This document shows, one piece after another, positions 24,839 through 60,443 of a stretch of 64,000 nt of DNA. This stretch comes from a bacterium (GTDB taxonomy: Bacteria; Hydrothermota; 32-111), in assembly GCA_050239825.1 (NCBI GenBank), contig JBFXGO010000001.1:73478-137477 (forward strand), in the 5' to 3' direction. Positions within the stretch are counted from its first letter, which is position 1. Each line of letters begins with the position of its first letter. Both the position numbers and the translations under genes were made by a program. The notes beneath the pieces were generated by a model. It made no database searches and was not told where the DNA came from. It saw only the letters and a program-made list of their open reading frames with translations.

Positions 24839-24850
24839 GAAAAGATTATT

Positions 24851-25893
24851 ATTTGTTATTCGCTGATGGCAGGCGTAGCGTCGGCTCGCACACTCCGCTT
24901 CGCCGCTTTATCAAGATGGGATAGCGGAGCAAGGAGAGAACCACTTGATGGGCGTCTGCGCGGAGCGTCCTCGCCGACTTGTAGCTTTCACTTTCAATAA
25001 GTTAATTAATTGAATGAATCTTCTAAAACCATTGGCGCGGGTGTAATGTGCGCGAACGTCCATGATAGAAAGAACGGGTTGCACCAGAAGTTTTAGAAGA
25101 TTACTGAAAAGACTAAATATTAATCAACTCCCCGTATTAAGCTCATGGCACACGGCACACGGCTCAGGGCTGATTTAGTGGCTGCACGCGGGCATAGCAT
25201 CGGCTCGCACACTCCGCTTCGCCGCTATATCAAGATGGGATAGCGGAGCAAGGGGAGAACCACTTGATGGGCGTCTGCGCGGAGCGTCCTCGCCGACTTG
25301 TAGCTTTCACTTTCAATAAGTTATTTAATTGATTGAATCTTCTAAAACCATTGGCGCGGGTGTAATGTGCGCGAACGTCCATGATAGAGGTATCGGGTTG
25401 CACCAGAAGTTTTAGAAGATTACTGTAAAGAATAAATATTAATCAGCTCCACGTATTGTATTTAAACTCGCAACTCGTAACCCGTAACTCGAAACTGAAT
25501 TATCTTTTAATATTGATGACTGCACTGGAATTTTTCCTCGGAACTGTAAAGGCAAGTCATTTACTCATCTCTCCGTATTTTGCTCATGGCACATGGCTCA
25601 AGGCTCAGGGCTGATTTTGGGGGCTGCTGGCAGGCGTGCGTCAGCTCACACACTCCGCTTCGCCGCTTTATCAAGATGGGATAGCGGAGCAAGGGGTCGC
25701 CCACTTGATGGGCGTCTTCGCGGAGCGTCCTCGCCGACTTGTAGCTTTCACTTTCAATAAGAACCTGTTGTGGGGACACACCGAAGGAATGTCCCCAAAC
25801 ATTGAATAGCAGTGCGGAGATGCACTGGAATTTTTCCTCGGAACTGTAAAGCCAAGTCATTTACTTAATTCTCCGTATTATGTTTAAACTCGT
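24851..25893 (+). repeat. Modular palindromic repeat array 2 (3 cores)
   Basis: Cores at 24880-24978, 25199-25297 and 25640-25738, with the same modules as arrays 1 and 3. Confidence 0.95.
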
Positions 25894-25979
25894 ATTCAGC
25901 ACCTCTTTGCCTTTTAACCTTTTTACTTTTTTTACCCAGTACATATTATATTGTAATTGTAATTTAGAGACATTATCTA

Positions 25980-38013: not shown

Positions 38014-38301
38014 ATGACTGTAACCAAAGCTGATGTTATTGACATTATAGCGGAGAAGACAGGAGTAATGAGAAAAGATGTTGAAATGTGCTTTCAGGCA
38101 CTCATTGATGTAATATCTGAAACTCTTGAAAAAAAAGACAGAATTGAGATAAGAGGACTCGGTGTCTTCAAGACAAAAAAGAGAAGCAAGAGAATAGCGC
38201 GCCATCCTAAGACAGGCGCAAAGGTTGAGGTGCCGGAGAGGTATGTGCCTGCATTTAAACCTTCCAAACTTCTAAAAGAAAGAATGGAAAAGGTAAAGTA
38301 A
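38014..38301 (+). CDS. HU/IHF family DNA-binding protein
   Basis: TKADVID, IEIRGLGVF, ARHPKTG and PAFKPSKLLK motifs. Confidence 0.95.
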   Translation: MTVTKADVIDIIAEKTGVMRKDVEMCFQALIDVISETLEKKDRIEIRGLGVFKTKKRSKRIARHPKTGAKVEVPERYVPAFKPSKLLKERMEKVK

Positions 38302-56602: not shown

Positions 56603-56938
56603 ATGATAAAAAATTTTATTAAGGAGAGTGATTTTGGACTTACAATATGCGACAAAGAGGGCGTAATAATTTATATGAATGACAAGGCTAAAATAATATT
56701 TAGAAATTATGGAGATGATCTTATAGGAAAGTCGCTCTTTGACTGCCATCCCGAACCAGCAAAAAGCAAACTCAGGGAGATGCTTAAAAGCGAGACAAAA
56801 AATGTCTATACAATAGAGAAGAACGGGATAAAGAAAATGATTTATCAGATGCCTCTCTATGAAAGCGGAGCATACGCCGGGTTCTATGAACTTTCCCTCG
56901 AAATCCCTATGAACATGCCCCATTTCAAAAGAGACTGA
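56603..56938 (+). CDS. Stand-alone PAS domain protein
   Basis: LTICDKEGVIIYMN, LIGKSLFDCHP and NVYTIEKNG motifs; AGGAG RBS. Confidence 0.88.
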   Translation: MIKNFIKESDFGLTICDKEGVIIYMNDKAKIIFRNYGDDLIGKSLFDCHPEPAKSKLREMLKSETKNVYTIEKNGIKKMIYQMPLYESGAYAGFYELSLEIPMNMPHFKRD

Positions 56939-56976: not shown

Positions 56977-59292
56977 CATTGTACAGAGAAGCGCTGTGGA
57001 CAGGCTTCTCATTCGGAACTGTAAAGGCAAAATCTTTCTCAACCGTGTCACCCTGAACGCCTCTATGGTTATGACTATCGTGAAGGGTCTATCAGTTTAT
57101 TGTTAATTGAAGTTTGTTTATAGGCTACTGACGGGTGTAGCGTCGGCTCACACACTCCGCTTCGCCGCTTAATCAAGATGGGTTAGCGTAGCAAGGAGAC
57201 AACCATTTGATGGGCGTCTTCGCGGAGCGTCCTCGCCGACTTTAAGCTTTCGTATATCAATAAGTTAATTAATTGTTTGTTGCAGTGGGGACACACCGAA
57301 GGAATGTCCCCACATTGGCGAGGGCGTAATGGACGCGAGCGCACATGATAGACGCCTTGGGCTGCACCAGAACTTTGTGAAGATTACTGTAAATACAAAA
57401 TCTTACTCAGCAGTGTCACCCTGAACGCCTCTATGGTTATGACTATCGTGAAGGGTCTATCATTTGATTGATTATTGATAATTGAAGATTGAGCTGGGGC
57501 TGCACGCGGGCGTAGCGTCGGCTCACACACTCCGCTTCGCCGCTTTATCAAGATGGGATAGCGGAGCAAGGAGACAACCACTTGATGGGCGTCTGCGCGG
57601 AGCGTCCTCGCCGACTTGCAGCTTTCGTGTATCAATAAGTTAATTAATTGTTTGTTGCAGTGGGGACACACCGAAGGAATGTCCCCACATTGGCGAGGGC
57701 GTAATGGACGCGAGCGTCCATGATAGAAAGAATGGGTTGTACCAGAAGTTTTAGAAGATTACTGAAAATACAAAATCTTATTCAACAGTGTCACCCTGAA
57801 CTACGCTTTAGTTATGACTATCGTGAAGGGTCTATCATTTGATTGATTATTGATAATTGAAGATTGAACTGGGGCTGCACGCGGGCATAGCGTCGGCTCG
57901 CACACTCCGCTTCGCCGCTTAATCAAGATGGGATAGCGGAGCAAGGGGTCGCCCACTTGATGGGCGTCTTCGCGGAGCGTCCTCGCCGACTTGTAGCTTT
58001 CGTGTATCAATAAGTTAATTAATTGTTTGTTGCAGTGGGGACACACCGAAGGAATGTCCCCACATTGGCGAGGGTGTAATGTGCGCGAGCGCACATGATA
58101 GACGCCTTGGGCTGCACCAGAACTTTGTGAAGATTACTGTAAATACAAAATCTTACTCAGCGGTGTCACCCTGAACGCCTCTATGGTTATGACTATCGTG
58201 AAGGGTCTATCAGTTGATTGATTATTGATAATTGAAGATTGAGCTGGGGCTGCTGGCGGGCTTAGCGTCGGCTCACACACTCCGCTTCGCCGCTTTATCA
58301 AGATGGGTTAGCGGAGCAAGGGGTCGCCCACTTGATGGGCGTCTTCGCGGAGCGTCCTCGCCGACTTTAAGCTTTCGTGTATCAATAAGTTAATTAATTG
58401 ATTGTCCTCATGAGAAGCATTGTACAGAGAAGCGCTGTGGACAGGCTTCTCATTCGGAACTGTAAAGACAAAATCTTACTCAACTGTGTCACCCGGAATT
58501 ATTCAGTAGTTATGACTCAACAATGTCACCCTGAACGCCTCTATGGTTATGACTATCGTGAAGGGTCTATCAGTTGATTGATTATTGATAATTGAAGATT
58601 GAGCTGGGGCTGCACGCGGGCATAGCGTCGGCTCACACACTCCGCTTCGCCGCTTTATCAAGATGGGTTAGCGGAGCAAGGGGTCGCCCACTTGATGGGC
58701 GTCTTCGCGGAGCGTCCTCGCCGACTTTAAGCTTTCGTATATCAATAAGTTATTTAATTGATTGAATCTTCACAAAGCATTGGCTTGGGAGAAATGTGCG
58801 CTAACGCACATGATAGAGGTATCGGGTTGCACCAGAACTTTGTGAAGATTACTGTAAAGACAAAATCTTACTCAGCAGTGTCACCCTGAACGCCTCTATG
58901 GTTATGACTATCGTGAAGGGTCTATCATTTGATTGATTATTGATAATTGAAGATTGAGCTGGGGCTGCACGCGGGCGTAGCGTCGGCTCACACACTCCGC
59001 TTCGCCGCTTTATCAAGATGGGATAGCGGAGCAAGGAGACAACCACTTGATGGGCGTCTGCGCGGAGCGTCCTCGCCGACTTGCAGCTTTCGTGTATCAA
59101 TAAGTTAATTAATTGTTTGTTGCAGTGGGGACACACCGAAGGAATGTCCCCACATTGGCGAGGGCGTAATGGACGCGAGCGTCCATGATAGAAAGAATGG
59201 GTTGTACCAGAAGTTTTAGAAGATTACTGAAAAGAATAAATCTTGCTCAGCTCCCCGTATTTTGCTCACGGCTCATGACTGACTTGGTTGGC
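56977..59292 (+). repeat. Modular palindromic repeat array 3 (6 cores)
   Basis: Cores start at 57142, 57517, 57892, 58267, 58627 and 58982 (periods 375, 375, 375, 360, 355). Confidence 0.96.
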
Positions 59293-59375
59293 AACAGCGT
59301 AACCGCTCATCATCCCTTGACTATTATTTTTTTATACATACAATATATGTGTTATTTTAATTATAGGAGGATTTT

Positions 59376-60443
59376 ATGCATAAAAAATTGTTCATTCCCG
59401 GGCCCACAGAGGTCGTCAAAGAGGTCCGCGATGCGATGGCCTGTGAGATGATCGGGCACAGGATGAAGGAGTTTACTGAGCTCTACAATGCTGTTGAGCC
59501 GAAACTCCAGCAGGCTCTCTACACAAAGAACAGAGTTCTCATGGTCACTGCTTCTGCAACAGGATGTATGGAGGCGGTTGTGAGAAACTTCTCAAAGAAG
59601 AAGATTTTGTCGGGAATGTGCGGTGCCTTTTCTGACAGATGGTATGACATTGCAGTAGGCAACGGCAAACCGGCAGGACAGTTGAAAGTCGAATGGGGAA
59701 AAGCAATAAAACCTGAAATGGTTGATGATGCTTTAAAGACAGGAGAGTACGATGTCTTTACTCTTGTACACAATGAGACATCAACCGGAGTCAAGAACCC
59801 CATAGAGGAGATTTCAGAAGTTATGAAGAAGTATCCTGATGTGATTTTTGCTGTTGACGCTGTCTCTTCTCTCACAGGGTACAAGATTGATGTTGATGCT
59901 TTGGGTATAGACATCATTCTCGCAGGCGTTCAGAAGTGCTTCGCCCTTCCCCCCGGACTTGCAGTTATGTCTGTCTCTCCGAAATCTATTGAGAGGGCAA
60001 AGACTGTTGCAAACAGGGGCTACTACTTTGATGTAATAGATATGCTCAAGTATGATGAAAAGGGCCAGACTCCCTCCACACCGTCGGTTTCCCACATTAA
60101 TGCTCTTAATGTGCAGATGGACAGGATGTTGAAAGAGGGCTTGGATAACAGGTTCGCGCGCCACAAGAAGATGGCAGACATGGTATTTGACTGGGCGAAG
60201 AGCAAGGGCATAGAACTCTTCCCTGAAAAAGGCTATGAGTCATGGACTGTGGTTACTATGAAGAACAACAGGAATTTCAATATTTCCGAACTCAACAAGG
60301 AGCTTGGAAAGAGGGGAAAGACTTTGTCAAACGGGTACGGCAAATTAAAAGAGGTGACATTCAGAATAGCCGCGATGGGAGACCTCATGCCCGCAGACAT
60401 ACACGAACTCCTTAATGATGTCAATGACATCCTTAAAATATAG
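59376..60443 (+). CDS. Class V PLP aminotransferase (serine-pyruvate / phosphoserine aminotransferase-like)
   Basis: LFIPGPTEV, IGHR, VHNETSTGV, VDAVSSL, QKCFALPPGL and FRIAAMG motifs; adjacent to serA. Confidence 0.92.
   Translation: MHKKLFIPGPTEVVKEVRDAMACEMIGHRMKEFTELYNAVEPKLQQALYTKNRVLMVTASATGCMEAVVRNFSKKKILSGMCGAFSDRWYDIAVGNGKPAGQLKVEWGKAIKPEMVDDALKTGEYDVFTLVHNETSTGVKNPIEEISEVMKKYPDVIFAVDAVSSLTGYKIDVDALGIDIILAGVQKCFALPPGLAVMSVSPKSIERAKTVANRGYYFDVIDMLKYDEKGQTPSTPSVSHINALNVQMDRMLKEGLDNRFARHKKMADMVFDWAKSKGIELFPEKGYESWTVVTMKNNRNFNISELNKELGKRGKTLSNGYGKLKEVTFRIAAMGDLMPADIHELLNDVNDILKI

Follow-up and report, generated by a model that had tools for sequence, protein, structure and literature searches.

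Two groups of bacterial intergenic repeats frame the element described here. Repetitive extragenic palindromes (REPs) are GTAG-tagged palindromes of 20-50 nt that are cut on single-stranded DNA, and bacterial interspersed mosaic elements (BIMEs) alternate a REP with an inverted REP, as set out in PMC8266576. In the neisserial intergenic mosaic element (NIME), a conserved palindromic repeat alternates with more than 100 reusable repeat sequence (RS) families, and its arrays have a GC wave, strain differences and nested repeats (PMC1797815). Here we describe a repeat family in a 64,000-nt stretch, the window, of contig JBFXGO010000001.1 of GenBank assembly GCA_050239825.1 (positions 73,478 to 137,477 of the forward strand; positions below are those of the window unless a contig is named). 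In this family a 99-nt GC-rich imperfect hairpin, the core, alternates with a reusable set of modules, in the window in three arrays. The source is a 2.115-Mb metagenome-assembled genome (MAG) of 67 contigs that is 99% complete, here G000, whose contig positions are written C5, C14 and so on; two MAGs of the same genus, G001 and G002, served for comparison, and the nearest named relatives with the repeat are "candidate division WOR-3 bacterium" MAGs. The closest architecture is that of the Neisseria NIME array, and the closest biochemistry is likely that of REP/BIME elements with their REP-associated tyrosine transposases (RAYTs). With a probability of roughly 0.6, we take the repeats to be a lineage-specific, non-coding, hairpin-forming mosaic intergenic family of the same general kind as REP/BIME and NIME.

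The 28-nt start of the core has 13 matches in the window, all on the + strand, with 0 expected from 100 shuffles. The matches bear out the count of the initial annotation, which was made from the letters of the window: 12 full 99-nt cores without indels, in arrays of three, three and six. The thirteenth match is a partial core. Array 1 (1340-2501, + strand) holds cores at 1465-1563, 1887-1985 and 2209-2307 and the partial core at 1783-1817, and array 2 (24844-25929, + strand) holds cores at 24880-24978, 25199-25297 and 25640-25738. Array 3 (56977-59283, + strand; C50:130454-132760 in G000) consists of six units of about 375 bp with cores at 57142-57240, 57517-57615, 57892-57990, 58267-58365, 58627-58725 and 58982-59080 on the + strand; it opens with a truncated atgagaagc-type module and closes with a heptamer-run module. 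Tandem Repeats Finder reports 57018-59251 as a repeat of period 375 with 6.1 copies and 83% matches, and no open reading frame (ORF) of at least 100 aa lies wholly inside array 3. Array bounds were set by similarity to other genomic copies, which moves the end of array 3 from the 59292 first proposed to 59283. The arrays had also been described as lying on one strand and starting close to + strand stop codons, and they do: all 13 core-start matches are on +, and the stops of a DUF2207 remnant, tgt and a PAS-domain gene lie 6, 5 and 38 nt, respectively, before the array starts.

The combinatorial reuse of modules that the annotation had proposed is seen in all 58 inter-core segments genome-wide. 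These segments measure 188-542 nt, and each is a mosaic drawn from one small set of parts in constant order: an AT-rich linker a, a B slot, linker 2, a C slot and a pre-core hairpin, after which come an NTAG tag and the core. The B slot contains module B1, B2 or B3, with or without the hairpin H1, and the C slot contains C1, heptamer runs (2-5 GCWCANG repeats per run), a "ctag" module (C3) or a GGGACGG-headed repeat. Every linker and module read from the window at the outset is present, namely aatcttc..gaagatt, atgagaagc..gcttctcat, gtggggaca..tgtccccac, tgtcaccctgaa..gaagggtct, ctag..ctag and the heptamer runs. The fixed AT linker reported after each core is there in general and is lacking in its standard form from the last unit of array 2. 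The identical grammar is found in G001, G002 and a metagenome relative.

Array 3 illustrates these parts on the + strand. Linker 2 (actgtaaag.caaaatct..ctca; 57018-57041) is a conserved non-hairpin joint before the C slot that is kept in G001 and G002, and it is the start or end point of many arrays. The C1 module (tgtcaccctgaa..gaagggtcta; 57046-57091) is present in all array 3 units but the last. A B2 module with its atgagaagc..gcttctcat stem lies at 58405-58458, and a 3' fragment of B2 opens the array at 56977-57016. The complete B1 module at 58765-58850 has a 13-bp outer stem, aatcttcacaaag/ctttgtgaagatt, around an inner hairpin, atgtgcg/cgcacat. The H1 hairpin (gtggggaca..tgtccccac, containing GGGGACAC) stands in place of the B1 5' arm at 57285-57313, with further copies in the array at 57660-57688, 58035-58063 and 59125-59153.

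A blastn search of G000 returned 124 matches. Near-full cores account for 102 of them and are grouped in 44 arrays that hold between one and six cores, array 3 being the largest. Their length is 99 nt in 91 cases, 114 nt in 8 and 77 nt in 3; the absence of indels noted in the window thus does not hold genome-wide. The arrays sum to 42.4 kb, or 2.0% of the assembly, and the GC content is 62% in cores, 44% between cores and 40% in the genome. Read depth in the independent run X1 reaches about 2800 in core bins and 22-24 in unique flanks, a rough measure that sums all mapped contigs, and this excess is consistent with about a hundred copies. A covariance model of the core gave 106 matches in G000, 17 in G001 and 5 in G002, the last two counts being lower bounds since repeats are often unassembled in MAGs and many matches sit at contig ends. 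The model has no match in 11 other genomes of the family, and phylum-wide it matches 3 of 151 genomes and 1 of 76 genera. That the repeat belongs to no named family, as first suspected, agrees with searches of Rfam, phage and plasmid collections and the literature. In Rfam, three tRNAs are the only window matches that reach the gathering score, and relaxing the limit to E ≤ 10 brings up nothing of relevance in array 3 (best 12.5 bits, E 1.8). The phage and plasmid collections hold no match to the whole unit, and literature searches found no description of REP-type repeats in WOR-3.

The core folds as one long imperfect hairpin of 26 pairs in four helices. Covariation was assessed on 43 distinct cores from G000, G001, G002, a metagenome relative and a diverged subfamily, in an alignment fitted to the model. 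In this alignment 98.2% of cells are paired compared with 91.0% after shuffling, none of 500 shuffles being as high, and compensatory changes on both sides are found in 16 of the 26 pairs (4.2 when shuffled, ≤7 in slid controls). The core hairpin is maintained by compensatory changes among diverged copies. Its tip is swappable: 77-, 99- and 114-nt forms occur in G000 and 97-, 104- and ∼124-nt forms in other relatives. In the 114-nt core the H1 hairpin substitutes the apical 18 nt, and in the 77-nt core a short hairpin occupies the tip. The foot reads GTAGC-GTCGGC ... GCCGAC-TTGTAGC, with GTAGC as the 5' tag in 66 of 101 copies, NTAGC in 96 of 101, and TTGTAGC on the 3' side in 53 of 102. The diverged subfamily differs in its foot, GCTCAT...ATGAGC, and in its longer tip, and continues into the same linker a; copies lie at L020:1532-1655 and L040:1501-1604 in other relatives and at C54:14040-14175 and C66:7901-8041.

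An alternative is that the arrays are tandem genes for structured non-coding RNAs, or their precursor; transcripts reading through from the upstream gene would be processed to unit-length RNAs, with the core and the modules as their domains. Covariation in the core speaks for this, as does that of the B1 outer stem, which differs in sequence and stays complementary both within G000 and between species. The domain order is kept across species, the + strand core fold has z = -3.3, and no terminator-like site lies between the upstream genes and the arrays. Array gene contexts, scored with crude longest-ORF picks for gene calls, comprise 16 tandem (14 co-oriented with both neighbours, 2 opposed), 11 divergent and 7 convergent cases, compared with 1449, 167 and 168 in the background. 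The co-orientation of 14 in 16 tandem contexts fits a transcript as well; it is, however, confounded with a strong gene-strand bias. Array orientation equals the sign of the contig GC skew on 26 of 31 contigs, and because skew tracks the coding strand, orientation with transcription and orientation with replication are inseparable. The - strand folds equally well (z = -4.0), and departures of the G-U and A-C kinds in the stems are balanced, at 13 versus 9 in G000 and 9 versus 14 in relatives, so that no strand is favoured. The units carry no promoter-like or terminator-like site of their own; the sole good promoter match, a sigma-70-like one at 59317-59344, falls after the end of array 3 and before the aminotransferase gene. 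One B1 stem arm is lost in 19 of 57 copies, arrays are missing from matching loci of the sister species G002, and a metagenome relative has two opposite arrays converging in one intergenic spacer (L072:5787-6974). With no Rfam match even at E ≤ 10, we judge the RNA explanation to be unlikely.

The junctions between modules bear on how the mosaic could have formed. H1, 29 nt long and present in 45 copies, is found between several left and several right contexts in many combinations, including core 5' half-H1-B2/B3; its flanks assort freely. The joins "core 5' half-H1-B2" and "core 5' half-H1-B3" are the reason that half-cores recur. In B1, the inner hairpin arms are concordant in 52 of 57 copies and mismatched, that is chimeric, in the other 5, while the 5' outer-stem arm is exchanged for H1 in 19. 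The partial core at 1783 comprises only the first ∼35 nt of the core and is fused to a "ctag" (C3) module, the two meeting at a shared 8-nt motif, TTAATCAA, that also occurs in linker 2. Array ends fall at several points of the unit cycle, mostly in linker 2 or the pre-core hairpin. Taken together, the H1 contexts, the chimeric B1 copies, the join at 1783 and the variable ends point to exchange at short shared segments rather than transposition of a fixed unit, and recombination as the mechanism is well supported by these junction patterns. Two H1 sites are of separate interest: the hairpins at C7:59637-59882 and C27:43891-44000 adjoin the 3' end of a tRNA and a stretch, "GGGATTCGAACGC", that is duplicated, and may mark the attachment site of an integrated element.

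A pattern of alternative joins could in part be created by an assembler, with short reads of about 100 near-identical units mis-threaded in array 3. In the well-covered run X1, contigs anchored in the unique flanks break off at 57019 and resume at 59212, and array 3 is bridged by none of the contigs from three DNA runs, so that the order and number of units within it come from the G000 assembly alone. G000 is moreover a 67-contig MAG with N runs, and many arrays in G000, G001 and G002 sit at contig ends. Nevertheless, the combinatorial pattern recurs in the 58 segments on at least 20 contigs and in three other assemblies, and the branch points of the assembly graph lie at module borders, which means that the alternative joins exist in the reads. 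We therefore give only a slim chance to the order being partly an artefact.

Comparison of the window loci with the sister species shows gain or loss of arrays from one species to another: G002 has no array at two of the three loci. At locus 1, the DUF2207 gene that follows LemA is intact in G002, where it encodes 639 aa and a 135-nt spacer without an array comes next; the gene behind LemA is intact in G001 too, and the part of G001 read upstream of the conserved downstream region is free of repeat modules. In G000 only a remnant of the DUF2207 gene is left (1160-1333), in which an internal deletion has brought ∼55 N-terminal codons up against the final few codons with the original stop; a 1.16-kb array lies 6 nt past that stop. 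At locus 2, the spacer between tgt and the dCache sensor gene is 67 nt in G002 without an array and contains a 1.09-kb array in G000; in G001 the contig breaks 44 nt after tgt. In G001, the aminotransferase orthologue of locus 3 has a partial core and heptamer runs on its upstream side, beyond which the contig ends, and a genome of another genus has no repeat at this place. Cores are 93-100% alike within G000 and 83-90% alike between G000 and G001 or G002, and G001 cores at different loci share substitutions of their own. This likeness within genomes and the shared G001 substitutions indicate either homogenisation within genomes or separate recent amplification.

The initial annotation had noted the lack of transposase, reverse transcriptase and integrase genes in the window, and the profiles Y1_Tnp, RVT_1 and Phage_integrase indeed have 0 matches there; all three do match elsewhere in the genome. 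A profile search finds four Y1_Tnp genes of 259-301 aa in G000 (C5:4330-5109, C14:63662-64483, C56:11012-11902 and C18:43111-44016), which are RAYT/TIRYT-like, have their own flanking inverted repeats and in two cases directly follow tRNA genes. For the two proteins that were scanned, the best NCBIfam match is the REP-associated tyrosine transposase, and both have a C-terminal helix-turn-helix. Inverted repeats headed by GGGACGG(T/A)G flank 3 of the 4 genes, and GGGACGG-headed repeats form subfamilies of 4-17 copies each, some as inverted doublets of ∼230 bp. One of these, the type-a/a2 repeat, is shared by a Y1 gene and the arrays: 14 of its 19 copies belong to core arrays or adjoin them, for the most part at the array 5' end or directly before the pre-core hairpin, and two flank the C5 gene. 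Near arrays, 16 of 17 flagged matches to the GGGACGG-type motif are in array orientation. G002 has an orthologue of the C5 gene with 75% identity, in the same place after a tRNA gene and with the same repeats. RAYTs reportedly occur in a vertically inherited single-copy state, which this syntenic single-copy pair in G000 and G002 resembles. Separately, inverted doublets of ∼230 bp of repeat GGGACGGTGGTTGAAATAGTTG, which also flanks the C14 gene, are found at C14:36255-36465, C28:13896-14106, C41:22136-22345 and C47:6392-6603 and look like derivatives of the MITE (miniature transposable element with inverted repeats) or REPIN type.

Linker a offers a further point of contact with REP-type elements. 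Its segment TATCAATAAGTTA at 57255-57267 (+ strand) fits the consensus WATCAANNNNTTR of integration host factor (IHF) and recurs after 8 of the 12 window cores. The consensus has 14 matches in the window where 6.2 are expected, and 11 of the 14 are in linker a. Two genes of the HU/IHF family are encoded in the genome, one of them in the window at 38020-38286.

Measured against REP and BIME elements, the family shares high-copy intergenic imperfect palindromes with a GTAG-type tag on the 5' side, linkered mosaic clusters with one linker fitting the IHF consensus, and a genome that encodes RAYT-like Y1 transposases. Of the two earlier suggestions, a BIME/REP-like mosaic amplified in trans and tandem processed structured RNAs, the first agrees better with the data in copy number, restriction to one genus, presence or absence of arrays, the NTAG tag and the RAYT-like genes, one of which shares its flanking repeat with the arrays; the strict features of a BIME are lacking. 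The core, at 99 nt with variants of 77-124 nt, exceeds the 20-50 nt of a REP, a range into which H1 alone (29 nt) falls; the inverted repeats of the Y1 genes are unrelated to the cores, and there is no REPtron. A REPIN consists of two inverted REPs that together make one long hairpin and move as a unit; the core is a long hairpin too, though neither arm repeats a shorter REP that stands by itself, and inverted doublets of the GGGACGG repeat, ∼230 bp long, lie separately elsewhere. TIRtrons are tyrosine transposase (TIRYT) genes between long terminal inverted repeats with a GGGGWSAS motif (Di Nocera et al. 2013, PMC3733652). The GGGACGG-headed repeats, which flank Y1 genes and form moderately abundant repeat families, dimers and clusters, correspond to this description, and the core does not. 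The motif is one that GGGGACAC of H1 fits, and the repeats that flank the Y1 genes here start (G)GGGACGG. The published description is of the repeats by themselves; here they are modules within a larger array around an unrelated 99-nt core.

The likeness to NIME lies in the architecture, that is, a GC-richer palindrome with reusable 50-150-bp families, long intergenic arrays, a GC wave, differences between genomes and nested small repeats (PMC1797815). In place of the 20-bp dRS3 (ATTCCCN8GGGAAT), a motif that direct reading does not find in any of the three window arrays, the constant element here is a 99-nt hairpin with several helices. The fixed slot grammar, the lack of sequence similarity and the lack of a phage recombinase known for this core also set the family apart. 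Outright membership in REP/BIME or NIME fails on size, alternating orientation, the REPtron and the dRS3 sequence. Among other modular repeats, the pneumococcal BOX element has the form boxA-boxB(n)-boxC, with three module types and no invariant long hairpin, and the cyanobacterial short tandemly repeated repetitive (STRR) sequences are plain heptamer runs. By description, the arrays resemble both as a modular intergenic repeat with a variable number of subunits and one heptamer-run module. CRISPR arrays have 23-47-nt repeats and unique spacers of about the same size, along with cas genes; here a 99-nt repeat is combined with "spacers" that measure 188-542 nt and are used repeatedly.

Another explanation is that the core is the site of a site-specific recombinase, either in attC-like clusters without an integrase or like dRS3 with a phage recombinase, and that the inter-core segments are cassettes. 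Like an attC site, the core is an imperfect hairpin whose frame is conserved and whose tip varies in length (77-124 nt), copies within an array are co-oriented, and in G002 a protein-coding gene lies between two repeat units; the GC wave, the dynamics of the arrays and the reused modules are as in NIME (PMC1797815). The attC sites of integrons have R''/R' sites, RYYYAAC ... GTTRRRY, at the hairpin foot and delimit ORF-bearing cassettes. Direct reading finds no such sites at the foot of the core, which reads as given above, and the segments of ∼190-400 nt are non-coding and reused, unlike integron cassettes or clusters of attC sites lacking integron-integrases (CALINs). Furthermore, the 44 arrays are scattered rather than confined to one or a few loci, and the junctions are spread over linkers and H1. 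Five Phage_integrase matches exist in the genome (two of ∼300 aa, one 146-aa fragment and two below cut-off), and none adjoins an array. A genome-wide neighbour check finds no gene family that recurs beside arrays, and the phage and plasmid collections give no match. On these grounds a recombinase site is highly doubtful.

We favour a hairpin-forming mosaic intergenic family, and its history can be pictured as follows. Arrays would be seeded in intergenic spacers, often right after stop codons, and would then lengthen by tandem duplication and unequal exchange. Modules would be shuffled via recombination at the conserved joints, namely the core, the linkers and the 29-nt H1, which could produce the combinatorial look, the chimeric hairpin arms, the half-cores and the homogenisation within genomes. 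The recognised form would be single-stranded DNA hairpins, and the nested palindromes (H1 and the GGGACGG-headed repeat) may be cut and joined by RAYT/TIRYT-like Y1 (HUH) transposases. The link to a Y1 enzyme is one we infer from the repeats shared by genes and arrays, and the best candidate would be the single-copy gene at C5:4330-5109. Effects on the host may include 3'-end hairpins on read-through mRNAs and binding of HU/IHF at linker a.

Several observations weigh against this interpretation. The copies stand head-to-tail, unlike the alternation of a BIME or the pairs of a REPIN: cores within an array share a strand, and only the small contig C39 has both orientations. None of the four G000 Y1 genes is flanked by cores or H1, and the NF047646 scores of the two scanned proteins, 56.6 and 73 bits, are under the cut-off of 80. 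Of 14 genomes of the family, 13 have Y1 relatives, and most of these lack the core, so that the gene family does not follow the repeat; co-distribution of Y1 genes and cores was for this reason rejected as evidence. Neither a target-site duplication nor a fixed terminus is seen at array ends. The conserved grammar and the stem covariation equally fit a multi-domain RNA, and an alignment fitted to the model, as ours was, favours structure. Finally, at least one context call is wrong, array 3 having been scored "divergent" through an ORF-picking error, and the array order is known from one assembly.

A bolder version can be considered. The family could be a hairpin-guided cassette system, in which a domesticated single-copy Y1 (HUH) transposase would act on single-stranded DNA, cutting and rejoining it at H1, the GGGACGG repeat and the GTAG-tagged core, and would swap non-coding modules among ∼40 loci, with an orientation bias due to action on the lagging-strand template; or else the shuffled units could be expressed as a combinatorial library of structured RNAs. 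We consider either form quite improbable.

The genes that flank the window arrays are LemA and the DUF2207 remnant, tgt, the dCache sensor gene, the PAS protein and a class-V aminotransferase. For array 3 these are the PAS-domain gene upstream (56603-56938, + strand), whose stop is 38 nt before the array, and the class-V aminotransferase gene downstream (59376-60443, + strand). As for other mobile functions, TnpB (PF07282) was not found in G000; an IS110-type domain has two short matches, C3:10958-11107 and C44:7269-7496, away from the window arrays, and RVT_1 has one match in the genome, far from arrays. A multi-copy element starting GGTTATTGGCAAAATAAAAGTCAACC is present at C3:9808-9969, C5:16118-16279 and C64:1680-1720, and one copy abuts an array end. 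Multi-copy repeats of 2.2-2.8 kb were considered as insertion sequences and rejected, being paralogous genes for secreted repeat proteins. These near-identical proteins with "YAYVAD..GLQIIDISNP" repeats, which we take to be LVIVD-like, make up the largest genome repeats (C9:67098-69275, C17:8447-10624, C33:39898-42636, C53:20241-22418, C55:1335-3134 and others). The repeat family is also seen, at 77-97% identity, on the 30-kb contig JBFXJF010000028.1 (L009, L010, L020), binned as Vulcanibacillus sp. Its polysaccharide-synthesis and AbiE genes encode proteins only 25-43% identical to those of G000, and the contig probably represents a strain-variable island that belongs to a close relative and was binned wrongly; on that account it was not used as evidence of horizontal transfer.

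How mosaics of the BIME, NIME and BOX kinds form and are recognised is largely open, despite the decades for which they have been known. The present family is an unusually clear case of a mosaic repeat, with a covarying core hairpin, a strict slot grammar, visible joints and turnover between species, in a compact 2.1-Mb genome of an uncultured phylum. The syntenic single-copy RAYT-like gene, whose own flanking repeat is found in the arrays, would provide a concrete pair of candidate enzyme and substrate. If the cassette system were to prove true, it would be a non-coding counterpart of integron cassette shuffling. The repeat family also accounts for the MAGs of this genus breaking at about 40 places.

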